Source: an uncultured Methanomicrobiales archaeon (lineage in GTDB: Archaea; Halobacteriota; Methanomicrobia; Methanomicrobiales; Methanospirillaceae). From it: 64,000 bases of DNA. The notes under the pieces were generated by a model. It was not told the origin of the DNA. It saw only the letters and a program-made list of their open reading frames with translations, and searched no databases. Every line of letters starts with the position of its first letter. The first letter of the stretch is position 1. Where the stretch lies: NCBI GenBank assembly GCA_963758915.1, contig CAVWXH010000016.1, positions 192,001 to 256,000 on the forward strand, read 5' to 3'. The position numbers and the translations under genes are program-made. Positions 17,385 to 57,514 of this stretch are shown here, piece after piece.

Positions 17385-17717
17385 TTATTCTTCTTCAATT
17401 TCCCCTGTCCTCACGCGGATCGATTTGGTGACAGGGGATACGAAGATTCTCCCGTCACCAATTTTACCTGTCCGTGCAGCATTGATAATGAGGTCCAGGA
17501 TCATCTGGAGGTCTTTGTCCTTCACCACTACTTCCACTTTACATTTCGGAATAAGGTCGACAGTAATTTCCCCACCCCGGTACTGGAGCACGATCCCTTT
17601 CTGGTCTCCACGTCCCTGGACGTCTGAAACGGTCAGGCCGTAAATTTTGTTCTCTTCAAGCGCTTTTTTTACGAATTCAAACCGTTCAGGTTTTATTATT
17701 GCTTCGATTTTTTGCAT
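17385..17717 (-). CDS. glnK: P-II nitrogen regulator GlnK (copy 1)
   Basis: KIEAIIKP, GRGDQKG, TGKIGDGRIFV, RVRTGE; GAGGTGA Shine-Dalgarno upstream. Confidence 0.95.
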   Translation of the reverse strand: MQKIEAIIKPERFEFVKKALEENKIYGLTVSDVQGRGDQKGIVLQYRGGEITVDLIPKCKVEVVVKDKDLQMILDLIINAARTGKIGDGRIFVSPVTKSIRVRTGEIEEE

Positions 17718-17727
17718 CTGGTTCACC

Positions 17728-18936
17728 TCATGCATTTATCCGTTCGCCGTGTTGGGAGATATCCAGTCCCACATATTCTTCATCTTCCGTTACACGCAGC
17801 CCCATGAATTTGTCAACGACCCATGCAAGCACATACGTGACCCCGAAGGCGTAAATCAGTGCTGCAAATGCTGCTACTGCATTAATGATAAACTGGTTGA
17901 CATTTCCTTCAAGAAGGCCGGAATACCCATTCACTGCGGCTGCTGCAAAGATACCTGTTGCAAGAGCTCCCCATAGACCGCCCATACCATGGATTGCCCA
18001 TGCATCACAACTTTCATCGAGACCTTTCCTCATCCGGAAGAGCATTGCACCATAACATACGAGACCTGCAATCACTCCGATAACAATTGATGCCATTGGG
18101 GTCACATAGCCGGACGCAGGAGTAATTGCTACAAGACCGGCAATTGCGCCTGATATCATCCCCAGAGAACTTGGTTTCCCATGGTACCAGCTTGCAAACA
18201 TCCATGCCAGGGCACCTGCAGCGGCTGCCGTGTTCGTGACGACAAATGCATTCGCAGCAAGACCATTGGCTGCAATTGCACTGCCTGCGTTAAACCCGAA
18301 CCAGCCGAACCAGAGTAACGCTGCCCCGAGCAGGGTCATCGGTATGTTATGCGGCTCCATCATGTACTTGCCGTAACCTGAACGGGCCCCGATTACAAGG
18401 GCAATGGCGAGTGCTCCGAAACCGGAACTGATATGTACAACAGTACCTCCGGCGAAATCAAGTGCACCCATCTGTTGTGCCCATCCACCACCCCATACCC
18501 AGTGTGCGAGAGGATCGTACACAAGTGTGGTCCACAGTAGCGCGAATACTATGAAGGATGAGAGTTTAACCCGTTCGGCCATCCCGGATGTTAATATTGC
18601 CATTGTAACTGTTGCGAAGGTCAGCTGGAAGATCATGTAGAGTAATCCAGGAATTGCGGGACTATATGGTCCGGCCTCCATCCCTACTCCTTCGAGACCA
18701 AGATTTGAAAGGTTGCCAATGAAACCCCCTGTGTCCCCGCCGAACACCAGAGAATATCCAATTAATACCCACTGGATACTGACAAGTGCAAACGCGACGA
18801 ATGCGAGTGCAATCATCGAGATAAAATTTTTCCTGCGTACCAGCCCGCCGTAGAAGAACCCTACACCGGGTGTCATGAGCATTACCAGTGCCGTAGCTGC
18901 AAGGAGCCAGGCCGTTGTTCCCGTATCGATTGCCAT
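17728..18936 (-). CDS. amt: Ammonium transporter (copy 1)
   Basis: [22 protein letters not shown] (twin His). Confidence 0.96.
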
Positions 18937-20177: not shown

Positions 20178-20519
<342 letters not shown>

Positions 20520-20527
20520 TTACCAGA

Positions 20528-21731
20528 TTATGCACGTTCCCCGTGCTGGGATAGATCAAGTCCCACATACTCCTCTTCCTCAGTCACCCGCAAGCCCAGG
20601 TACTTGTCTATAACTTTTGCCAATACCCAGGTCAGGCCAAATGAATAGACCATAATGAACAGGGCCCCGCCAACCTGGATGAGAAACTGGTAGACATTTC
20701 CATAAATCAGGCCCGTATAACTGTTGATCGCAGCGGAGGCAAAAATACCGACTGCAATTGTCCCCCAGAGCCCTCCTATTCCATGGACTGACCAGGCATC
20801 AAGGCTTTCATCCATACCCTTGTTGATACGCCAGAGCATCGTCCGGTAACAGAGAATTCCTGCGACTGCTCCAATCAGGATTGAGACCAGAGGCCCTACA
20901 TATCCTGCGCAGGGTGTAATTGCACCGAGACCTGCAATCGCCCCGCTCACCATTCCAAGAGAACTGGGATGACCACCTGATCCACGATGCAAACAACCAT
21001 GCGAGTGCCCCGGCAGCGGCTGAGGTATTAGTGACAACGAGGGCATTAACAGCAAGACCGTTTGCTGCGAGCGTGCTCCCCCCATTGAAACCGAACCAGC
21101 CGAACCATAACAGTCCGGCACCAAGGAGGGTCATGGGAATATTGTGAGCTTCCATCGCGTAGGTCCCGAAACCCGCTCTTTTACCGATTACTATTGCAAT
21201 AGCGAGAGCTGAAAACCCTGCAGTAATATGGACAACTGAACCGCCTGCAAAATCAAGGAATCCAAGTGAGCTCAGCCATCCGCCTCCCCAGACCCAGTGT
21301 GCAACAGGGTCATATACGAGTGTAGTCCAGAGGAGTGCAAACAGGATGAATGAGCTCAATTTGACCCGTTCAGCCATACCTGATGTCACGATTGCCATGG
21401 TAACAGCGGCGAACATCAGCTGGTAAGCCATAAAGAGGAGACCTGGAATTGCAACACTGTAGGGGCCAGGTTCCATCCCAACACCTTCGAGTCCTACCAG
21501 GGTAAGATTTCCCATGGCCCCTGATACATCTCCACCAAATGCGATTGAATATCCAATGATAATCCACTGGATACTCACCAGCGCGAATGCCACGAACGAC
21601 ATCGCGACCATGGAGATGAAATTCTTCTTACGAACAAGACCCCCGTAAAAAAGCCCGACACCTGGTGTCATCAGCATCACTAAGGCGGTTGATGCGAGGA
21701 GCCACGCGGTATCTCCACTGTCAATTGCCAT
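20528..21731 (-). pseudogene. amt: Ammonium transporter (copy 2), split by a 1-nt frameshift near 20975 (possible sequencing error)
   Basis: ORFs 20808-21731 and 20528-21124 join into a full Amt (ASWIR|GHPSSLG, compare [12 protein letters not shown] in copy 1) if one base is removed. Confidence 0.85.
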
Positions 21732-40677: not shown

Positions 40678-42055
40678 TCACGTACGGGTCCTGCACCTTC
40701 CAACGAAATGCCTGAACATTGCGATTCCCGGCACCGGGTGCAGGTGTGTGTAACTACCCAGGGTCTGTCCAGTCACAGCACCGTCATACATTCCGTCAAT
40801 CCCGGTCCCACGGGTGAGCCTGTATGCGTAATTGGTTTCAGGTGCCAGGCAGACATCGGAGTAATGAAACTCATGGCCTCTGAAACTCCCTGCCCCGAGC
40901 GGGCAGTCTGCCCTGCTCTCCCCCTCTACGTAACTGACTACACGGCGCGCGGGCATCCGCGTTTCACCCGTAAAAACACCTGCCATTTCATATACCCGTT
41001 CTTGTTTATGGCCCTGCCATCCTTCCATCAGGCGTATCCGTTCTGTCAGGTACATCAGCCCGCCGCACTCCGCATAGATCGGCACGCCGTTCCCTGATTG
41101 TTCACGGATCGCCTCCCGCATCCGGGTGTTTGATTCAAGCCCGGGGAGAAATAATTCGGGGTAGCCCCCTCCGATTATATAGCCCTCTGCATCGGGTAAC
41201 CGATCCCTGACAGGGCTGAATGGTATCACATCGGCCCCAAGTGCCGGCAGGACATCAAACAGGTCAGAATAATAAAAATTGAACGCTTCGTCACGGGCAA
41301 CAGCGATCCTGGTATCTGTTTCATGTTCTTTTGGAAAGAGTGGCGCCCCTTTCGGCACATCCGGGATATCAGCTGCAATGCTGGTGAACGCATCGAGTGA
41401 TACATGCTCTCCAATCAGTCCGGTTACCCTGGCTATTCTCTTTTCAAATTCACTGCTGCCCTGCCGTTCTATGAAGGGCACCAGGCCGAGATGCCGCATG
41501 GTAAGTTCCATCTCTTCCATACGTGGAATTGCACCAATAACCGGGACATTGCAATAATGCTCAATTGCAGAGGTTGCCTTATCCGAATGTTTTACGCCCA
41601 TGACATTGTTGAGAATCACTCCCTTAATCTGTATATCAGGAGAAAATGCCTGGAAACCCTTAACGACGGCTGCAGCGCTCCTGGTAATGCTCCGGGCACT
41701 GATTACGAGCACAACAGGCAGGTCAAGGGCACGTGCGATCGCTTCAGTACTTCCAACATCTGTAAGTGCCTCAGCGCCTTCGAACAAGCCCCGCACTCCT
41801 TCCACCAGGGCAAAATCAGCACCCTGGCAGCCATGGGTGAATACCCGTGATATCTCTGAAGGGGACATGACAAAACTGTCAAGGTTCCGGCATGGCCGTC
41901 CTGTGACGCCCGTGAGATACGATGGATCGATGTAGTCCATCCCCGCCTTGAAGGTCTGTACCTGTCATCCTGCGGGAAAGAAGCGATGAAAGTGCAAGAG
42001 AAATACTAGTCTTTCCACAACCTGACCTGTCACCTGATATCAGGACAGCTTTCAT
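40678..42055 (-). CDS. cfbB: Ni-sirohydrochlorin a,c-diamide synthase (F430), 1-nt frameshift near 41962
   Basis: MKAVLISGDRSGCGKT (ATG 42055) joins VQTFKAGMDYIDP; EGVRGLFEG, MRHLGL, AECGG, GHEFH; in the cfb cluster. Confidence 0.88.
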
Positions 42056-43116
42056 GCGAGGCTCCGGAGGACTGCCCCGAACTCACTCTCTACCACGTGC
42101 CGCACCCCGAGTGTTTTCGGATGAAGGTCAATTTCAACAACGACAAACTGGTGGCCGATCTCTTTTAAGGGTGCGACCTGTCGTGGGCCGTTTGTAATAG
42201 AATAACAGCAGATACCTTCTGTATACTCAGGTGGAATCGCATGGGGGACTCCTGCGAGAAGTGCGAAGTCCGGGTCAATTTCCCTGATCCGTTTTCCCAG
42301 CGCCTCCCCGTTTGCACCATATTCATCAAGTGCCCCGATAGTTTCCAGGGGGACTGAGGCATCAGAAAATGCTTTCCTGATTATTCCGGCATCACGCCGT
42401 ACCTTGGGAAGTCCGCGTTCTTCGAGGTTGGCGATGTAGTTGATATCCGCACCAGGACAGACCTCGTGGAGGGCTATCAGTTCATCGGCGAACATGTATG
42501 CGGTCTCTTTTTTCGCGTTCATCACTGCCACGCCCCGTTCACCCATTTTAATACGATTAAGGAGATCGACGGCAACTTTGTGCTTGAGGTCTCCGCGTGA
42601 TGGCTCGATATATGACTGGCTTGCGGCTCCCCTGAGGCGTTCCACCTCGTTCGCTTTTGAAAGTACGTATTTCTGGCGGTCGAGTTCTTCCGGACTGATC
42701 CAACCAGCTTCTGCCGCAGGGACCAGTGTGGCAATCACCCCGTCAATATTTTCAGGATACCCGGCATGGATGTCTACGACAATTGTCGGGGTCGTGATCC
42801 CTGAATCATCCACCGCTGATAACAGGTCTTCACCAATAATCATGGATACACAGGTGCCTACCACGGCCATTCTGTCAGGAGAAAATTCCCTTTCTGCATA
42901 CTGCAGCGCGGTAACCAGCGGGTCATGTCCACCGAAAATAAATTCGTTATCAGCCAGGGAAGTAGTCAGCACCCGTAAACCGTCCTCTTCGAGGAGACGG
43001 GCGTGCTTGAAGGAACAACCCGAAGGACCGTGCAGGATGGCGACATCCACTTCAAGGTCCCTTGCAGTATAAAGCGCGGCAACAATCGAACTCGGCCTTG
43101 GCTGCATGTATTTCAT
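42052..43116 (-). CDS. cfbD: Ni-sirohydrochlorin a,c-diamide reductive cyclase catalytic subunit
   Basis: QPRPSSIVAALYT, HGPSGC, GTCVSMIIGED, DLHPKTLG. Confidence 0.93.
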   Translation of the reverse strand: MKYMQPRPSSIVAALYTARDLEVDVAILHGPSGCSFKHARLLEEDGLRVLTTSLADNEFIFGGHDPLVTALQYAEREFSPDRMAVVGTCVSMIIGEDLLSAVDDSGITTPTIVVDIHAGYPENIDGVIATLVPAAEAGWISPEELDRQKYVLSKANEVERLRGAASQSYIEPSRGDLKHKVAVDLLNRIKMGERGVAVMNAKKETAYMFADELIALHEVCPGADINYIANLEERGLPKVRRDAGIIRKAFSDASVPLETIGALDEYGANGEALGKRIREIDPDFALLAGVPHAIPPEYTEGICCYSITNGPRQVAPLKEIGHQFVVVEIDLHPKTLGVRHVVESEFGAVLRSLA

Positions 43117-43120
43117 CCTG

Positions 43121-44341
43121 TTATCTCCACGATTTAACTGCGAGTACCACGCACGCATCCTCCGGGGTTGCGAGTGCAGCGGACTTCCCCTCACAAAAGG
43201 TACCTGTGTAGGTAATCCTGTTTGTTTCCAGATATCTGGTTAGAGAAGATGCCATATACTCGTTCCTGTACTGTTCTCCGACAATAACAACCCGGCATGG
43301 CCTGACATTTTCTATTGTGCGGATAATCTCTTCAGGAAGGAATCCTTCACATACTGCGTGGGCCTCCTGACCGATGACCAGTACCAGGTCATCTTTACCG
43401 GAAACCGATCGTGCATACCGTGCGGCGTCTACTGTGGTATCCCTTGTTGTCCCACTGTTTGCATTGTCAATAACAAAATGCCCCTGCTCTGTTGTGACCG
43501 CCATTCTCCCTGGCAATGCAGTAAAATTCCGGAGTGAGACGGGATCGAAACCAAGCATACAGCCTGCTGCTGCAGCAACCATCAGTGGTGTTTTGTAACC
43601 GGCAAGTTCGAAGAGCGTGTTTTCAAACGATCCACTCACACCATTATAAGAATAATCACACCGGTCCCCGGATATCCGGACTATCTCATCCGCATGAACC
43701 ACGTCTGCACGTGATAAATAAACTCCCGGGGCAACAAGGAGACGCCGTGCATGTGCTGAAGAATCCATTTTGATGGCAAGTGCAGATTTCTTCCCGGCAG
43801 CGCACCGGTAATCAAGGGCTGAAGTAATTATTGCAAGGTCCCCGGCACCGGTAACCCCCAGCGACTCTTCCGCAACGAGCCAGCCTCCCTGCTTTCTTGC
43901 GGCAGCAACCACGGAGATCAGGGAGGCCGGTGTGATACTGCGCCTGAAAAGTTTTGCCTGTTCCGGGTAACGGTATGTCCCCCCCGAAGTATGGAGGATA
44001 CCGCATCCAGGCAGTATATGTGCTATTGCATGGGCTGTTGTTGTTTTTCCCTGTGCCCCTGTCAACTCGATCATGGGCTGAGGCAATTCGTCCCCGAGAA
44101 TCCATTTTACTGCTTCATGATGAGTGATCCGGGGGGTGCTCCGGTATTGTTGAAGGATTGGATGATCGGGGTTGAGATGCACGGGGACTATCAATCTGTC
44201 GTAGGAATTCCCCCCATGTGTTGAACTATCCCCTGCTGGCCCCCGGTAAACATCTACCATATCCACGTGATGCCCGGCGGCTGTCAGGGCATTGCCTATT
44301 TCTTTACCACCATGGATGGTATCGAGGACAAGGAGGTCCAT
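43121..44341 (-). CDS. cfbE: Coenzyme F430 synthase (Mur-ligase-like)
   Basis: LDTIHGG, ELTGAQGKTTT, SITPAS, EESLG, DNANSG; between cfbA and cfbD. Confidence 0.9.
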   Translation of the reverse strand: MDLLVLDTIHGGKEIGNALTAAGHHVDMVDVYRGPAGDSSTHGGNSYDRLIVPVHLNPDHPILQQYRSTPRITHHEAVKWILGDELPQPMIELTGAQGKTTTAHAIAHILPGCGILHTSGGTYRYPEQAKLFRRSITPASLISVVAAARKQGGWLVAEESLGVTGAGDLAIITSALDYRCAAGKKSALAIKMDSSAHARRLLVAPGVYLSRADVVHADEIVRISGDRCDYSYNGVSGSFENTLFELAGYKTPLMVAAAAGCMLGFDPVSLRNFTALPGRMAVTTEQGHFVIDNANSGTTRDTTVDAARYARSVSGKDDLVLVIGQEAHAVCEGFLPEEIIRTIENVRPCRVVIVGEQYRNEYMASSLTRYLETNRITYTGTFCEGKSAALATPEDACVVLAVKSWR

Positions 44342-44750: not shown

Positions 44751-45159
44751 ATAGTAAATACTGGTGTGGCGAGTCTTAAAATTGTTACCAAATTATCCTT
44801 ACTTCCAATATTTGCTATATTACTCCCTTTCTTTGTAAAATACGGAAAATAATTCACTTGTCACAGGATAAAAAAACCATGTGGTTCGAAGGGATGACTT
44901 CATAACCGGTAACCAAACAGCCAAAACAGGAGTTAATGAGCATGGTTAGTGCCCGGATTATTGGGTTCACACCCTGGTGATACGGTGAAAAAATCCGGTC
45001 AACGCTTTTTAGTCTCAAATTCAAAGCAAATTTTAAAATTAACCATGATTTTCAGTATTATATTGTTATGAGTACAATAGTTTTGTTCTTTGTGAAACAA
45101 CTCCGGTTGACATCACGCCAAAAGTAATTTTGCCTGTGACTTTCAATTTATATGAATCC

Positions 45160-46296
45160 ATGATGGAGCACTTTGAGAGATTCGGACTTCTGATAAATAA
45201 CCAGGTGGTGCGGACACCCGTCGCTATAGCTTCTATGGCAGGATATGTCGATGCGGAGTACGTGCGTGCCCGTGAGAAGCACATCGGTCTGGCATTTATC
45301 GGAGGGTACTCCATCGATGAACCGGCAATGAGGGCAAGTGTGCTGATGGCTTCGGGAGGGAGGGAGGAATTCCTTCGAGAGGATATGATTTCCGAACTGC
45401 ACAGCCAGGTCTCCCGCATGGCCGGAAGTGATGTTGTACTCGGGATCAACATGAGAGGATGTTCTCCCGCAGCCTTTACCACGGTCGCTGAAGAGTTTGG
45501 TGATGGTGTGGTCTATGAAATTGATGCCCATTGCCGCCAGCTACCCATGGTAGAGGCGGGGTCCGGTGAATATTACCTTAAAAACCCTGCAAAGCTTACC
45601 GACATAGTTACAACACTTAAAAAGTCTGGTGTAACTGTTTCTGTTAAAATCCGGGCAGGCGTCGCCACTGATGACCGCGCACTGGCGAAGGCCCTGTGGA
45701 AAGCAGGGGCGGACATTCTTCATGTTGACCTGATGGATTTTGGGTACCTTAAACTTAAGCAAATCAGGAACAGCTGCCCTGTCCTTTTAATTGCAAATAA
45801 CTCGCTGAATACGTTTGACCGCGTAAAGGACATGTTTGCTCATGGTGCAGACATGGTCTCGCTCGCAAGAAAATCAGATGAACGGACATTATCCGGGCTC
45901 GATGCGGCTATTACAAGGTATACCGATGAGCAGGGGTGGTACAATGCGCCAAAACAACTCTGCCGTGGCGGGGATATAAGGGCACTTACCTTCTGCTGTA
46001 TGCCCGTGAAAAGCTGCCCGTTAATTCCCACGCTTGATAGTCTCGGTATAAAGCGGGATGAATATATCAGGCTGAAGGAGGAATCCGTTCTGGGTACTCC
46101 TCTTGAGGCGGGAAAAAATACCTGTTTCGGAAGCCTTGCATGGTGCTGCAAGAACTCATCCCCCTGTATGTTCCGTGATATCACACTTCAACAGGCCGGG
46201 ATTCCCAGCAAGGAATATATGCGGTTGAAACGTCAGCTTTCTGAAAAGATAATTCATCATATCTACAATGACAGGGAAGGGGATGACGCCTGCTGA
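45160..46296 (+). CDS. Dus-like TIM barrel fused to methanogenesis marker 9 domain
   Basis: IASMAG, EIDAHCRQ, SVKIRAG; C-terminal LCRGGD.RALTFCC..K.CP, TCFGSLAWCCK..PC. Confidence 0.85.
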   Translation: MMEHFERFGLLINNQVVRTPVAIASMAGYVDAEYVRAREKHIGLAFIGGYSIDEPAMRASVLMASGGREEFLREDMISELHSQVSRMAGSDVVLGINMRGCSPAAFTTVAEEFGDGVVYEIDAHCRQLPMVEAGSGEYYLKNPAKLTDIVTTLKKSGVTVSVKIRAGVATDDRALAKALWKAGADILHVDLMDFGYLKLKQIRNSCPVLLIANNSLNTFDRVKDMFAHGADMVSLARKSDERTLSGLDAAITRYTDEQGWYNAPKQLCRGGDIRALTFCCMPVKSCPLIPTLDSLGIKRDEYIRLKEESVLGTPLEAGKNTCFGSLAWCCKNSSPCMFRDITLQQAGIPSKEYMRLKRQLSEKIIHHIYNDREGDDAC

Positions 46297-47801: not shown

Positions 47802-48797
47802 TCAGCAGACACGGGGTACCGGGTCGCCTATTGGGGGCTCAATGAACCGCTCTCCTCCAATTGGCGTCTCCATAATTACCCCCGATCCCTTTGTGACCAT
47901 CCCAACAATTGCGGCATCCCTGCCATATTTATGGGATTTTATCGCAGCCAGGATGGCCCCGGCATCTGCCTCCGGGACCCCCATTACAACTTTTCCCTCG
48001 TTGGCTACTTCAAGAGGGTCGATACCCAGCATACCAGCAGCACTGCGGACGCTTTTACGCAACGGGAGTGCCTCTTCATATATCCGCACACCAGTACCTG
48101 ACTTTCTCGCCATTTCATTGATTGCGCTGGCAAATCCCCCCCGTGTCGGGTCTTTCATCGCGTGAATACGACCTGCACCAAGGGCTTCCTTTACAAGTCC
48201 CCAGACCGGGGCAACATCGGAACGGATCTGCTCCCCAAGGTCAAAGCCCTCCCTGTGCGCAAGGATTGCTATTCCGTGATCCCCAAGCGTCCCGCTCACA
48301 ATGATCCGGTCGCCGGGAACAAGGCCGTTATCACGAACAATTTCTTCTGCTACACCGATCCCCGAGGTATTGATCATGATTCCATCTAGCGCTCCACGTT
48401 CCATTACCTTTGTATCGCCGGTGACGAGATTCGCACCTGCTTCACCAAGTGCCTCGTCCATTGAAGCAACGATCCGTTCGAGGTCGCTGATCTCGAACCC
48501 TTCTTCAATAACCATCCCGCAGGAGAGGGCGATTGGGCACCCCCCCATCATCGCGAGGTCATTTACCGTCCCGGCAATTGCAATGCGTCCAATGTCGCCC
48601 CCCGGGAAAAAGATCGGTCTCACAATATGCGAATCGGTAGTGAACACAATATTTTTTCCGCCGATTGGAAATACTGCGCCATCATCCAGGGATTCAAGTC
48701 CGATTCCTCCGGCATTGTTATGGGTAATCTTTGTAAGGACGCGAAGAAGTTCACCCATCACTTCCCCGCCGGCTCCGTGCATCATATTGACTTTCAT
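47802..48797 (-). CDS. hypE: Hydrogenase maturation protein HypE
   Basis: HGAGG, TTDSH, GTVNDL, GDTKV, DPTRGG, C-terminal PRVC. Confidence 0.96.
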   Translation of the reverse strand: MKVNMMHGAGGEVMGELLRVLTKITHNNAGGIGLESLDDGAVFPIGGKNIVFTTDSHIVRPIFFPGGDIGRIAIAGTVNDLAMMGGCPIALSCGMVIEEGFEISDLERIVASMDEALGEAGANLVTGDTKVMERGALDGIMINTSGIGVAEEIVRDNGLVPGDRIIVSGTLGDHGIAILAHREGFDLGEQIRSDVAPVWGLVKEALGAGRIHAMKDPTRGGFASAINEMARKSGTGVRIYEEALPLRKSVRSAAGMLGIDPLEVANEGKVVMGVPEADAGAILAAIKSHKYGRDAAIVGMVTKGSGVIMETPIGGERFIEPPIGDPVPRVC

Positions 48798-52727: not shown

Positions 52728-52889
52728 ATGATGGAAAAGCATGGTAGTCAGGTATGCAGGTATACCTCTGATCCCGCAGAGGGAGATCCGGATGCAGGAA
52801 TAAATCCAGGTACAGCATTTACATCACTTACTGGTACCTGGCATTGCCCGGTCTATGAATCCCCAAAAGAAAAATTTACCATGATGTAA
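52728..52889 (+). pseudogene. Degenerate rubredoxin (two of four Cys lost); not in the ORF track
   Basis: MEKHGSQVCRYTSDPAEGDPDAGINPGTAFTSLTGTWHCPVYESPKEKF aligns with the rubredoxin pattern CxxCG.YDP..GDP..G..PGT.F..L...W.CP.C. Confidence 0.75.
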
Positions 52890-54096
52890 TGGGAAGTGCA
52901 ATAATGGTTTTCAGAACTGTAACTCCGGACTGTTACTCAATTGCTGCGCTCGATTTTGATCGGCGACTTTTTGATGCTCTTATCCCATTACCTGATGGGA
53001 CAAGTTATAATGCATATCTGATCAGGGGGAGTCAGAAGACTGCACTTATTGACACGGTTGACCCCGCAAAAGAGCTGGAACTGGTATCTGATCTGATCCG
53101 TCATGGCGTGGATTCGATAGATTATGTGGTTATTAATCATGCTGAGCAGGACCATTCGGGGTCCCTGCCGATGGTCCTCGAGTTGTTTCCAGTCATCAAA
53201 AGTAGTGACTAATGAGAAGTGCAGGGACCTGCTAATCCATCACCTCGATCTGGAGGAAGACCGGTTTATTACTATTAAGGACCGGGAAACGCTCTCGCTT
53301 GGGAATAAAACACTCGAATTTATCATTGCACCGTGGGTCCACTGGCCTGAAACAATGCTCACCTATCTGAGGGAGGACCGTATCCTTTTTTCATGTGACC
53401 TGTTCGGTATTCATTATGCAACCAGTGACCTGTTCCTGAAAGATGAAAAGACCCTGTATACTGCTGCCAAGCGGTATTATGCAGAAATTATGATGCCTTT
53501 CCGGGCCAGCATCAAAGGGCATATGGAAAAAATCGGAGCACTGGATATTGAGATCATTGCGCCGAGCCACGGTCCTGTCCATAATAATCCAGGTTTTATT
53601 CTCAATGCGTATAATGAATGGATATCAGATTCGGTAAAGAATGAAGTTGTGATCCCCTATGTATCGATGCATGGCAGTACCGAAAAACATGGTGGACCAT
53701 CTGACCAATGCGTTAATTGAGCGGGGGATCGCGGTAAAACCCTTCGATATGACGGTTACCGATACCGGTAACCTTGCAATGTCGCTGGTGGATGCTGCGA
53801 CGGTGGTAATCGCTACCCCTACCGTTCTGTTCGGCCCTCACCCCCAGATTGTTTATGCAACCTACCTTGCGAATATGCTCCACCCCAAAGTAAAATTTGC
53901 ATCGATAATAGGTTCCTATGGCTGGGGTGGTAAGACAACTGATATTTTAAAAGCCATGATGACCCATATCAAACCCGAGCTGCTTGAACCGGTGCTTGTT
54001 CAGGGATTGCCGGGAGAAACCAGTACCAGGGGCCTCGACCGTCTTGCAGATGATATTGCACGGAAACATAAAGAAATCGGACTGCTACCACCATGA
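52889..54096 (+). pseudogene. fprA: Flavodiiron protein FprA, split by two 1-nt frameshifts (near 53191 and 53687)
   Basis: GTSYNAYL, NHAEQDHSG, HWPE, SCDLFG, PSHGP; flavodoxin SMHGST and GSYGWGG across three ORFs. Confidence 0.85.
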
Positions 54097-54441: not shown

Positions 54442-55254
54442 ATGAAGCAGATCGCCCTGTACGGAAAGGGTGGTATCGGCAAGTCCACCACATCGGCCAA
54501 CCTGTCAGCAGCACTGGCAGAGAAGGGACTCGATATTCTCCAGATTGGGTGTGATCCCAAGCGTGACAGCACACGAATGCTGATGCAGGGCAGGTTCATC
54601 CCTACGGTAATGGACCATGTAAGGAAAGAAGGCGATAATGACGTCAGACTTGAAGATATTATGTTCACGGGGTACCGGGGAGTACGGTGCGTCGAGGCAG
54701 GAGGGCCTGAACCCGGTGTAGGGTGTGCCGGACGTGGAATTATTGCCACCTTCCAGATCCTTGAACGCCTTGGTGCTCTGAAAGGGGACATTATTGTCTA
54801 CGATGTCCTTGGAGACGTGGTATGCGGTGGGTTTGCTATGCCGATGCGTGAAGGCTATGCGCAGGAGGTCTACCTTGTCACGTCGGGGGAACTCATGTCC
54901 TTATACGCTGCAAATAATATCTGCAAGGCTATCCAACGCCTGTCCCTGAGGGCGAAGAACCGGTGCCGCCTTGCAGGTGTTATTTGTAATTCAAAAAATA
55001 TGGAAAACGAAGAGGAACTCGTACTCGAATTTTCGAAACGGATCAACAGCCGGCTTATCCATTTCATTCCCCGTGACAGGACTGTCCAGCTGGCCGAACT
55101 TCATAAAAAAACCGTGATTGAATATGCACCCGGGTCTCCTCAGGCAGGGGTATACCGGTCACTTGCAGGGATTGTTGCGACGAATGAACAGTTTACAATT
55201 CCCAATCCGCTGGATACCGATGAGCTTGAATCCCTTGCCTTTGAGTATATCTAG
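54442..55254 (+). CDS. cfbC: NifH-like Fe protein (group IV; probable CfbC-type reductase)
   Basis: [39 protein letters not shown]; the cfb cluster in this window lacks cfbC. Confidence 0.65.
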
Positions 55255-56287
55255 GACCGGCGGGTGCACCCTTACCGGGGCGCTTGCGGTCACCACCGGG
55301 ATTAAGGACTCAGTTACAATAATTCATGGTCCTCCGGGTTGTGCGCATCATAATTTTTCTCTGCTTCATGCGACTATCCTTGATAATGACTGCCTGGTAA
55401 TCCCCAGCGTCATGTCTTCGGGGATGTCTGAACACGATGTGATATTCGGAGGCGAGGAAGCGCTAATGAGGACGATTAAGGAAGTGGCTTCCGGTGATCC
55501 TGGAATAATATTCGTACTTTCGACATGTATCACCGAGACGATTGGTGACGATGTTCTTGCGGTTACTGAGAATGCGGGAGTTCCTGTCTGCATGGTACCT
55601 ACCGGGGGATTTTTAGGAGGAGATTTTGAAAAAGGTTTTTCCAAAGCCCTCATCGCAGTTTCAAATCTTGCCCTGCCGGTGGTCATTATTCCTGAATGTT
55701 ACCAGAAAATTAAGGGCTCGGTTAATCTGATTGGAGAGAAAAACCTCGAATACGAGGTGGAACAAAACTTCTTGGAAGTTAAGCGCCTGGTTTCCCTGCT
55801 AAACCTTACAATCAATCTCCGTTTTGCCCATGATATCATCCGCTCCGATATTAACCGTCTTCCCCTCGCATCGGTGAATATTTTAAGAGAACCTGCACTG
55901 TCTGGGGTTGGTGATCACCTGCAGTCCATGTTCGGGACGCCGTATATCAGTTCATTTCCCCTGGGTATCAGCGGGACGCTGTCTTTTATCAGGAATGTCG
56001 CCGTCCGGTCAGGATTATGTCCGGATGATGCGTTAGAGAGTGAAAAGGAACGTCACAAGGAGATATTAGAAGGATTTTCAGACCTTCATGGCGCTCCGGT
56101 ACGGCTGATTATTCCGGCAGAGGGACCGGAATACCTGCTGATCAAGGAGATCTCCCGTGCAATCGGACTCAGGGAATCACCTGAAGGGACCATATTGCCG
56201 GTGCCTTACCCATTTCCGGTCGGTACAAGTGGTATGAAAAGGATGCTCCATCTTTGGAGGAGGACACTTACATGCCGGGCTGCTTAA
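55220..56287 (+). CDS. Short nitrogenase component 1-like subunit (NifD/E-like)
   Basis: GC...HGPPGC...VIFGGEE.L...[11 protein letters not shown]; about 355 aa. Confidence 0.85.
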
Positions 56288-57408
56288 ACCCTGTATGGCC
56301 ATGTGCGCTGACCGGGGCGGTTGCGGCATTATCTGGCTTCTCTGGTATAGCTGTCGTAATTCACGGCTCAAGTGGCTGTTATTTTTACCCGGCCACGTTG
56401 TTGCACAATGATCTCCACAGCACCTTTCTGGTCGAGCAGGAAGTGATCTTCGGTACGAGTGAACGTCTTGTAGAAGTCGTGAAGGAACTTTCCCGGACCT
56501 ACAAAAAAGTAGCAGTTGTCAATTCGTGTGTCCCTTCCATTCTTGGGGAGGATATCAGGGATATTCTGTCAGAATATAATATAATTTTTGTAGATCGCCC
56601 CGGATTTACCGGAGAATTCGAATCCGGCTATCTTAGTGCAGTGAAGGACCTTCCGGTTTGTGTCGGTCAGGGCACCGACAGGGTGAATATTGAAGGGATA
56701 AATCTCATCGACCCGTTCGTGCGTGGTAACCAGCGGGAGGCAGAACGCCTGCTGCAACTGATGGGGGTTTCTGCAGGTACAATATTCTGCCATGACTCGT
56801 ATGAGTCACTCAGTAGTACGGCCGGTTTTTCAGTCACGGTAAATCCAGACCTTTCTGCAGGAATAGGGCAAGAAATAGGCTCATTTCTAGGTCTTCCTGC
56901 AATAAGTAAAACGGCCTGCACTCTTGCAGACAGCTTTTGTAATGCAGAGACCCGCGGAATTGAAAAAGAGATCATACTTGTTGAAGAACGTATTACAAAA
57001 GCAGCAGATAAATACCTGAAACGATTTGATCCGCCCTCGGTAGCCATTTTTACTACCTGTTCATATTCCAGGTTTGCGGCGGCAACCTTACAGAAGTACC
57101 TTGATGCCGATATTCTCTACTGCGGGTCACGAAATGAACCCGGGAATTCATGTACCGCGGCTACGAAAGTTACTTCCCTGGCAATAATTGAGTCGGCGAT
57201 CCGTAAGCATGCTCCCGACCTGGTTATCGGGTCCACCTTTGAACGTTCGGTTGCAGGAAATGCGGCTTTTATCGGACTTACCCCTCCTATCCGTGGTGAG
57301 TTCCGGCTTTCATCGAAACCACTCGCCGGTACAGAAGGGGAACTGTCCTTCATGGAGGACATTCTGAACGCCTGCATGGACTTCCAACAGCGGAAACCCA
57401 TTAAATAG
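56272..57408 (+). CDS. Short nitrogenase component 1-like subunit (NifK/N-like)
   Basis: NPVWPC...HGSSGC...VIFG...NSCVPSILGED, PDLVIGSTFE; GGAGG Shine-Dalgarno; about 378 aa. Confidence 0.85.
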   Translation: MPGCLNPVWPCALTGAVAALSGFSGIAVVIHGSSGCYFYPATLLHNDLHSTFLVEQEVIFGTSERLVEVVKELSRTYKKVAVVNSCVPSILGEDIRDILSEYNIIFVDRPGFTGEFESGYLSAVKDLPVCVGQGTDRVNIEGINLIDPFVRGNQREAERLLQLMGVSAGTIFCHDSYESLSSTAGFSVTVNPDLSAGIGQEIGSFLGLPAISKTACTLADSFCNAETRGIEKEIILVEERITKAADKYLKRFDPPSVAIFTTCSYSRFAAATLQKYLDADILYCGSRNEPGNSCTAATKVTSLAIIESAIRKHAPDLVIGSTFERSVAGNAAFIGLTPPIRGEFRLSSKPLAGTEGELSFMEDILNACMDFQQRKPIK

Positions 57409-57514
57409 CCCCGAATGAGCGTATCAGTATTTCTTATTTTCTTCCGGTGTTTTTTTATCACTTTCACCCCGCGCATATCGAGATTTTATATACCGTTATA
57501 GTTAGAGAGAATCT

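Follow-up and report, generated by a model that had tools for sequence, protein, structure and literature searches.

We analysed a stretch of 64,000 nucleotides (nt) from an uncultured Methanomicrobiales archaeon of the Methanospirillaceae (GCA_963758915.1, contig CAVWXH010000016.1, positions 192,001-256,000, forward strand; hereafter the window, whose own numbering is used throughout), and we focused on an operon for nitrogenase-like proteins, cfbC-D'-K', at 54442-57408 of the plus strand. We confirmed that the operon is a real feature made up of three intact, overlapping genes (Table 1): an ATP-dependent iron (Fe) protein of the NifH type (H) is followed by an alpha-type (NifD/NifE-like) and a beta-type (NifK/NifN-like) component-1 subunit (D' and K', together D'K'), and re-reading of the open reading frames (ORFs) bore out the overlaps, the lengths in amino acids (aa) and the cysteine spacings given in a first-pass annotation of the same DNA. 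H and D' share 35 nt, D' and K' share 16 nt, and the starts of D' and K' are consistent with the N-termini of their homologs in alignments. A Shine-Dalgarno-like site (GGAGGAGG) ahead of K' falls inside the end of D', which fits translational coupling of the two subunits, and a T-rich tract behind K' may be the archaeal oligo-T terminator of the operon. Pfam assigned H to Fer4_NifH (367 bits) and both subunits to Oxidored_nitro, D' with 181 bits over profile positions 1-267 of 399 only and K' with 128 bits over positions 1-398 of 399.

We found that H passed the NCBIfam cut-off for F430_CfbC (NF033200; 416.8 bits vs. 402) and remained below that for nifH (TIGR01287; 387.5 vs. 394.35 bits); it carries the P-loop GKGGIGKS and the cluster cysteines in GVGCAGRG and VVCGGF, and by its profile scores the first gene of the trio is CfbC. 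The first-pass annotation had named it NifH, which holds for the type of Fe protein but missed both its identity as CfbC and its standing as the only Fe protein of the genome: H is the sole NifH homolog in 2.38 Mb (18 contigs, 94% complete), the next PF00142 matches being too weak (40 and 26 bits). Exactly three PF00148 genes occur in this genome, namely D', K' and cfbD, the known client of CfbC, which lies in a cfbE-cfbD-cfbB cluster about 10-11 kb from the trio on the opposite strand; with cfbD, cfbE and cfbB all present, H would be the Fe protein available to CfbD. With CfbC as the sole Fe protein of the genome, the D'K' system would share its reductase with coenzyme F430 synthesis, and this sharing is the most informative fact about the system.

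The first-pass annotation had also reported an absence of nif genes beside the trio, of nifI and of an NrpR-like operator. None of nifD, nifK, nifE or nifN is present anywhere in the genome, but nifB is, on another contig (356 bits vs. a cut-off of 343.65); its presence matches the reported need of methanogens, in which NifB is described as essential, for the L-clusters in the methyl-coenzyme M reductase (MCR) activation complex, which reside on McrC and Mmp7 (PMC12176620). No nifI was recognised by context, although the window does hold two P-II genes, both in amt-glnK pairs (ammonium transporter, then P-II) 34-37 kb from the trio, and these are GlnK-type by context; the second amt is split into two overlapping ORFs (307 and 198 aa), an apparent frameshift. 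The operator consensus GGAA-N6-TTCC had no match in the window, in agreement with the earlier statement.

Conservation and surroundings of the operon

To describe conservation we used 41 genomes of the order, from 6 families and 22 genera, with ortholog thresholds of E <= 1e-70 for D' and E <= 1e-75 for K'. Orthologs of both subunits were found in 39 of the 41 genomes; the best NifH homolog (68-100% identity) stands directly 5' of D' in all 39 carriers, and K' stands directly 3' of D' in 36 of them, whereas in one genus (g17, three genomes) K' lies 2-3.6 kb off on the opposite strand, with Usp, bPH and tautomerase genes intervening. Across 301 genomes of the phylum, the window's own included (ortholog E <= 1e-67), D' orthologs were present in 46 of the 47 other genomes of the order vs. 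0 of 253 elsewhere, where the best matches reached 1e-28 to 1e-26. Close homologs carried the source names Methanomicrobiales archaeon, Methanoregula, Methanoregulaceae and Methanoculleus bourgensis. The D' matches in five related genomes were flagged with an internal TGA; selenocysteine was ruled out, this TGA being the gene's own stop read through.

Two genomes of the order, G019 (99% complete) and G013 (85% complete), have no D'K' and one PF00148 gene each, cfbD. In G019 the order small ORF-cfbC-trkH is kept around cfbC, which marks a clean loss of D'K' there, and because this nearly complete genome has lost D'K' yet kept cfbC, the system is accessory, not essential. Ratios of nonsynonymous to synonymous substitution rates (dN/dS) were taken from nine within-genus pairs with unsaturated dS: D' gave 0.11-0.22, K' gave 0.09-0.26 and cfbC gave 0.02-0.08, which indicates purifying selection on D' and K'. 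Some draft genomes show broken frames: K' falls into two or three pieces and contains internal stops in G004 and G006, K' is truncated in G014, and cfbC is split in G004. The completeness of these assemblies is 74-93%, with 1-10 contigs each. We do not read these breaks as decay, since the genomes are drafts and the window's own assembly is also frameshifted, in its FprA-like and amt genes; indel errors may account for them, with true decay as a possible alternative. The check on synteny and decay that the first-pass annotation had called for thus came out in favour of intact genes, with the trio in 39 of 41 genomes and dN/dS of 0.09-0.26.

Thirteen loci were compared for the surroundings of the trio: TrkH, phosphoribulokinase, an FprA-like gene and a small ORF occur as neighbours, and only H-D'-K' itself is conserved. 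The FprA-like gene (an ODP metallo-beta-lactamase with a flavodoxin-like part) neighbours the trio in 6 of the 13 loci, and in the window, directly 5' of cfbC, it is split over three frames; in a tblastn search with the intact 397-aa ortholog of G014, matches of 65-73% identity were spread over frames 1, 2 and 3. This implies two frameshifts, so that the copy is either a pseudogene or an assembly indel error. The ORF just 3' of K' (146 aa) has no Pfam or NCBIfam match, and its homologs take the same position in three other loci (G014, G023 and G019, the last being without D'K'). Further off, an ORF joins an MJ0144-type dihydrouridine-synthase-like part to a methanogenesis marker 9 domain (164 bits), with hypE nearby.

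Table 1. Positions of the operon, its signals and other features of the window
Feature	Position	Strand	Remarks
cfbC (H), NifH-type ATP-dependent Fe protein, 270 aa	54442..55254	+	ATG start; opens the operon
D', alpha-type (NifD/NifE-like) component-1 subunit, 355 aa	55220..56287	+	ATG start; Oxidored_nitro match
K', beta-type (NifK/NifN-like) component-1 subunit, 378 aa	56272..57408	+	ATG start; Oxidored_nitro match
Shine-Dalgarno-like site GGAGGAGG	56257..56264	+	8 nt 5' of the K' start, within the 3' end of D'; read from sequence
T-rich tract (candidate terminator)	57428..57459	+	starts 20 nt 3' of the K' stop; 7-T run at 57450-57456; read from sequence
cfbD	42052..43194	-	longest ORF, family match from residue 31; TIGR03282 498.6 bits vs. 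cut-off 268.4
cfbE-cfbD-cfbB cluster	40678..44341	-	cfbC not included; all above NCBIfam cut-offs (cfbE 319 bits, cfbB 579 bits)
FprA-like gene	52889..54096	+	directly 5' of cfbC
Small ORF, 146 aa	57515..57955	+	just 3' of K'
Marker 9 ORF	45130..46296	+	
hypE	47802..48797		
amt-glnK pair	17385..18936	-	
amt-glnK pair	20178..21731	-	second amt, split

Ligands, fold and family placement

We aligned 26 D' sequences (36-88% identity to the window copy) and found C16, C41 and C103 to be the only invariant cysteines; the window copy has them in the pattern C16-x24-C41 and STC103..GDD. K' of the window shows the matching set C11-x24-C36 and NSC86..GED, and its three cysteines occur in 11 of 11 rows, with an additional N-terminal cysteine, C4, in 10 of the 11, the remaining sequence beginning later. 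The column that holds the cofactor cysteine of NifD, NifE, NifEN and Mar-like proteins falls on D' position 224, where all 16 of the D' sequences in the site table have E, D or S; residues 223-225 are Arg-Glu-Pro within a conserved L-R-[E/D]-P motif, and no His past residue 50 is conserved in the 26 sequences as a C-terminal cofactor His would be. The earlier reading that equivalents of the ligands of the iron-molybdenum cofactor (FeMo-co) are missing was therefore upheld, as was its remark that CfbD in this window has only two of the three cysteines: Cys60 and Cys115 correspond to C41 and C103, and Ser takes the position of C16 (25% identity to D' over 181 residues). Because the FeMo-co Cys and His are absent and the genome is without NifEN, D'K', judged from its sequence, cannot be a nitrogenase.

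AlphaFold2 models of the single subunits were confident (predicted local distance difference test, pLDDT, of 86.6 for D' and 89.3 for K'). In Foldseek searches D' matched NifE, MarD, NifD and BchB about equally (template-modelling score, TM, about 0.7), the NifD matches including MoFe structures with a disordered third domain, and K' matched NifN, NifK, VnfK and BchB (TM 0.8-0.85). Judging from the extent of the Pfam match and from the model, whose C-terminal part is short, the third domain of D' may be reduced, which would leave an open pocket. A complex model of D' with K' gave an ipSAE of 0.68 (runs of 0.69, 0.68 and 0.48) vs. 0.00 for the best control, and so passed a mark that was attained by 58 of 80 solved complexes and by 2 of 110 mismatched pairs; contacts agreed between runs to at least 71%, with a partner pLDDT of at least 87. 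The predicted interface (D' 12-16, 37-44 and 102-104; K' 2-11, 33-39 and 86-87) takes in all ligand cysteines, and conserved D' His43, His44 and His50 and K' Cys4 also fall within it. From this model only, we infer that D' and K' probably form a heteromer. Together with the missing FeMo-co ligands and NifEN, it is in keeping with the compact, heteromeric nitrogenase fold without N2 fixation that the first-pass annotation had proposed.

Neither subunit passed any NCBIfam cut-off (nifE 104 bits vs. 505, nifD 70 vs. 653, nifK 57 vs. 427, BchB 73 vs. 490, BchN 32 vs. 420; TIGR03282 for CfbD 48.8 with D' and 52.3 with K' vs. 268.4). In phmmer searches of the PDB the best match of D' was the NifEN fusion 9i0g (E 3e-28), and the NifEN structures 9i0f and 9ian also led the Foldseek list; to MarDK (9d9u) the similarity was low (E 1e-14 and 8e-6; 17-19% identity in structural alignments). 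An exhaustive search of 1.84 billion representatives recovered the D' family at full length down to 232 bits and 38% identity, followed by a gap to the next full-length match at 155 bits; many of the next-best matches were proteins of ~730 aa in which an N-terminal NifH/CfbC-like domain is fused to a D-like domain. A query of the ESM Atlas led to nothing beyond the protein's own archaeal 'nitrogenase component 1' clusters.

We placed the subunits with quick maximum-likelihood trees (88 rows under LG+G4 and 55 rows under LG+C20 with posterior mean site frequencies, PMSF), in which deep branching is uncertain and support comes from the Shimodaira-Hasegawa-like approximate likelihood ratio test (SH-aLRT) only. 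The D' and K' clades received support of 99 and 100. D', the H-D fusions and bacterial proteins of ~435 aa (Nitrospinae, Chloroflexota, Tectomicrobia, Limnochordia) form one clade (96-98), apart from both NifD/NifE (99) and a Mar-like clade (100), the latter labelled by a 245-bit match to 9d9u_A, with rows from one genome and no named MarD sequence in the tree; K' groups with the K-partner of the fusions at 87, below the 95% mark of the tree tool. The phylogeny asked for in the first-pass annotation thus places D' outside the NifE clade, a D'+NifE grouping being rejected by the approximately unbiased (AU) test (p 1.3e-6), whereas a sister relation to the Mar-like clade was not rejected; the groups tested were picked after inspection of the trees. 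An identity of D' with NifE is excluded by this AU result, by Arg-Glu-Pro at the position of Cys250 and by the nifE profile score.

In these trees the nearest relatives of D' are uncharacterised pairs of a NifH-NifE-like fusion and a NifN-like protein, noted in a 2012 survey that assigned them no function (PMC3464626). We examined 13 fusion loci. An H-D fusion is followed by a K-like gene in 11 of the 13, in hosts that include Methanolobus, Methanosarcina, Methanomassiliicoccales, Bathyarchaeia, Thermoplasmata, Clostridium tetanomorphum, Peptococcaceae, Oscillospiraceae and Myxococcota; two loci of metagenome-assembled genomes (L043, 966 aa, Methanomethylophilus; L052, 1085 aa, Myxococcota) have longer H-D ORFs and no separate K-like gene, which suggests H-D-K triple fusions. 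The D-domain of the fusions, 30-35% identical to D', keeps the three cysteines and misses the cofactor cysteine in 11 of 13. Their K-partners have Asp, Cys and Pro at the three ligand positions and, going by these residues, probably hold a [4Fe-4S] cluster, unlike K'. With the H domain fused to D in the sister clade, a D subunit of this kind would work with a NifH/CfbC-type partner. Near the fusion loci we found FecCD permeases (6 of 13) and ABC ATPases (9 of 13), and a Peripla_BP_2 binding protein was also seen. Importers of the FecCD/Peripla_BP_2 type take up metal chelates and tetrapyrroles, and this context points weakly to such a substrate for the wider clade.

Compared by published features, and by description for Nfa, Isr and Group VI, D'K' appears to fit none of Mar, Nfa, Isr, CfbD, dark-operative protochlorophyllide oxidoreductase (DPOR) or Group VI. 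It resembles CfbCD in its Fe protein gene, in short catalytic subunits of about 350-380 aa, in the lack of FeMo-co or L-cluster ligands and in a presumed direct reduction from a single interface cluster; CfbD (Group IV-B), however, is a homodimer with two cysteines per subunit and a [4Fe-4S] cluster, whereas D'K' is a paralog pair with 3 + 3 (+1) cysteines. DPOR (BchNB/ChlNB) is likewise similar, in its working model of one interface cluster that passes electrons directly to a tetrapyrrole and in fold (TM 0.7-0.85), but its NB cluster has three Cys and one Asp where the first K' ligand position is Cys, and it has an Fe protein of its own, BchL; DPOR and chlorophyllide oxidoreductase (COR), listed under Group IV in the first-pass annotation, belong to Group V (PMC13474568). 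NifEN resembles D'K' as an alpha/beta heteromer that depends on a NifH-type protein without fixing N2, and gives the best sequence and fold matches, yet NifE has Cys250 and the N-parts of fused NifEN have one Cys. NifDK, VnfDK and AnfDK have the six P-cluster cysteines, as D'K' does, and differ in the FeMo-co ligands alpha-Cys275 and alpha-His442, both absent from D', and in profile hidden Markov model cut-offs that D'K' does not reach.

Within the nitrogenase-like (NFL) systems, MarDK (Group IV-C) has two components and the full six P-cluster cysteines, like D'K'; MarD differs by a Cys270/His428 pair for a second cluster, for which MarB or NifB is reported to be needed (PMC13474568; PMC13753814). 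D' has neither residue and is ~160 aa shorter than MarD, and no B gene stands beside it, the genome's only NifB being on another contig. NfaDK (Group IV-A) is described with six P-cluster cysteines plus a Cys257/His pair and NfaB (PMC13474568), and D' lacks the cofactor pair; IsrD (Group IV-F) keeps only the equivalent of Cys88, with three cysteines in IsrK (PMC11423573), whereas D' keeps three. Group VI systems of the Elusimicrobia type are described with at most four of the six P-cluster cysteines, no FeMo-co ligands and no NifB (PMC13474568); by this description D'K' shares the absence of FeMo-co ligands and differs in having all six cysteines and a genomic NifB, and the ~435-aa bacterial proteins near D' might belong to this group.

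Extra NifH copies, 50-57% identical to H, occur in 12 of the 41 genomes. In G017, of the same family, one such copy sits in a true nif cluster (nifHDKEN) and another in a Mar-like cluster (L033 C1:2062000-2081900) among three D/K-like pairs (512+452, 569+468 and 516+448 aa), in addition to the cfbC-D'-K' trio. The 512-aa D protein matches MarD (9d9u_A) with 245 bits, which suggests Mar-like NFL systems in a methanogen, and this Mar-like protein scores 1e-71 to 9d9u vs. 1e-14 for D'.

Proposed mechanism and rival explanations

We propose that cfbC-D'-K' encodes a heteromeric reductase driven by CfbC, with a single interface cluster, that is accessory and specific to the order, a proposal to which we give roughly even chances. 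D' and K' would assemble into a heteromer, by analogy an alpha2-beta2 tetramer, and each D'/K' interface would hold one Fe-S cluster, with C16, C41 and C103 of D' and C11, C36 and C86 of K' as its ligands and K' C4 as a possible further one; we infer a P-cluster-type [8Fe-7S] cluster or a pair of [4Fe-4S] clusters, and no additional cluster, whether FeMo-co-like or L-type. CfbC would dock over this cluster and deliver single electrons upon ATP hydrolysis, while also serving CfbD in F430 synthesis, and the interface cluster would then directly reduce an organic substrate in the pocket that would open where D' lacks a cofactor and has a shortened third domain, as in the direct-reduction scheme of DPOR and CfbCD.

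As substrate, we tentatively favour a nickel hydrocorphinoid or another tetrapyrrole-type cofactor species, for example an F430 derivative or oxidised F430 (such as 12,13-didehydro-F430) that is re-reduced, because D'K' would share its reductase with F430 synthesis, has an architecture like that of DPOR and CfbCD, and has a sister clade whose loci lie near importers; on balance we hold this to be doubtful. Somewhat less probable still is the more specific form, in which CfbC and D'K' make up a second, so far unrecognised reductase of hydrocorphinoids or tetrapyrroles, particular to Methanomicrobiales, that repairs 12,13-didehydro-F430 to F430 or makes a derivative of F430 specific to the order. 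As 12,13-didehydro-F430 is a known degradation product of F430 with O2 (PMC8549059) and the FprA-like gene is a frequent neighbour, one may speculate that O2-damaged F430 is what is repaired.

Several points weigh against the proposed reductase. To our knowledge, the six-Cys P-cluster set feeds a second cluster in every characterised enzyme, and a P-cluster enzyme without cofactor has no precedent. The proposed role is predicted from sequence and a model, and the score of the complex model may reflect likeness to solved NifDK-type complexes instead of binding. The flanks gave no functional hint in the 13 loci compared; no tetrapyrrole gene is adjacent to the trio, cfbE, cfbD and cfbB being ~10 kb off on the other strand. 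Shared transcription with cfbC could reflect only common regulation, and the RNA data that we found are no proof of transcription or co-transcription: five RNA runs had matching words (share 0.05-0.08 each), and contigs from four libraries contained nine short exact pieces, from cfbC (X2, X3, X4) and from K' (56748-56968; X1, 221 nt, 0 differences), and none from D'. Because the K-partners of the fusions have other ligands, function may not carry over from the sister clade. The AU test left a D' + Mar-like clade standing (p 0.10), with D' outside the Mar-like clade in both trees, and IsrDK indicates that NFL proteins without cofactor ligands can do C-S chemistry (PMC11423573).

The last two points lead to a rival in which D'K' with CfbC reduces a small, non-tetrapyrrole compound, by cleaving C-S bonds of organosulfur compounds as Mar and Isr do or by acting on a small N/C compound. 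Most bacterial Group IV systems are reported to be tied to sulfur metabolism (PMC13753814; PMC13474568), IsrD is likewise described without cofactor Cys and His (PMC11423573), and a deep sister relation of D' and Mar-like proteins is compatible with the AU result; however, no sulfur-metabolism, radical-SAM or NflB/MarB-like gene was found beside the trio in the 13 loci, D' has no equivalent of the Cys/His pair of Mar and keeps three cysteines where IsrD has one, and similarity to MarDK is low, so that we rate this as unlikely. We give even less credit to D'K' as a NifEN-like scaffold or carrier, for instance of NifB-made [8Fe-9S-C] for MCR activation, with CfbC in a maturation role like that of NifH towards NifEN and the P-cluster. 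D' matches NifE and NifEN best and K' matches NifN best, this non-diazotroph has NifB, L-clusters are reported on McrC and Mmp7 and NifB as essential in methanogens (PMC12176620), and D' His43, His44 and His50 and K' Cys4 in the predicted interface could be extra ligands; yet D' lacks the equivalent of Cys250 of NifE, the AU test rejects a grouping with NifE, the NifN-type subunits of fused NifEN have one Cys and not three, and MCR activation is universal, but D'K' is restricted to a single order and can be dispensed with in G019.

A part for D'K' in F430 biosynthesis itself, either in the six-electron reduction or in ring closure with CfbD, appears just as improbable to us as the scaffold. 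It would account for an operon with cfbC in 39 of 39 genomes, and the order of the CfbCD reductions and the lactam-forming enzyme are described as unresolved (PMC13474568), but CfbCD alone is reported to give seco-F430 in vitro with proteins of other orders (PMC13474568), cfbD is intact here and far over its cut-off, G019 keeps cfbC and cfbD without D'K', and no other sampled methanogen order has D'K'. That the two genes are functionless, decaying remnants of an old nitrogenase or maturase is highly improbable: they are 100-150 aa shorter than NifD and NifK, were lost in G019 and G013, and have K' or H frames broken in G004, G006 and G014, but the frames are intact in the window and in most of the 39 genomes, dN/dS is low, the ligand cysteines and many motifs are invariant across 6 families, the AlphaFold2 models are confident, and the broken copies sit in drafts that may carry indel errors.

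Significance

D'K' belongs to the nitrogenase-like family as one of its uncharacterised variants; it is no system of a new kind. The first-pass annotation had put it forward as the window's best candidate for an undescribed system, which agrees with its passing no curated cut-off, but its class of sequence was noted in the survey of Dos Santos et al. 2012 (PMC3464626), which describes NifE/N-like pairs with 3+3 P-cluster cysteines and no FeMo-co ligands in Proteobacteria, Archaea, Firmicutes and Fibrobacteres; the 'Yellow' class of this survey has the feature set of D'K', with Archaea among its hosts, and its available text gives no function and no link to F430 or to CfbC, which was unknown in 2012. 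In the full-text literature, figures and supplements apart, we found no paper on a cfbC-linked D/K pair in Methanomicrobiales. Recent accounts describe the lettered clades of Group IV, with the exception of IV-B, as bacterial (PMC13474568; PMC13753814), treat CfbCD as the NFL system of methanogens (PMC13474568; PMC13753814, 2026), call the cfb genes 'exclusive to methanogens' (PMC13753814) and name uncharacterised nitrogenase-like systems as the main open problem of the field (PMC13474568, 2026 review).

Against this background, D'K' constitutes a second archaeal NFL system, near-universal in one methanogen order and linked to cfbC, and it combines a full set of P-cluster ligands with no cofactor site, a combination without a characterised example; this ligand combination and the link with cfbC recommend it for experiments, and it is directly testable since cultured hosts exist (Methanoculleus bourgensis, Methanoregula). 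If the proposed reductase is real, the nitrogenase family would gain its first member with direct reduction of an organic substrate by a seven-Cys interface cluster, of the P-cluster type or of still another, and without a second cluster, and a single Fe protein would serve two catalytic partners in cofactor metabolism. What the system does bears on how the clusters and partners of nitrogenases diversified, and perhaps also on the upkeep in methanogens of F430, the cofactor on which almost all methane of biological origin depends.

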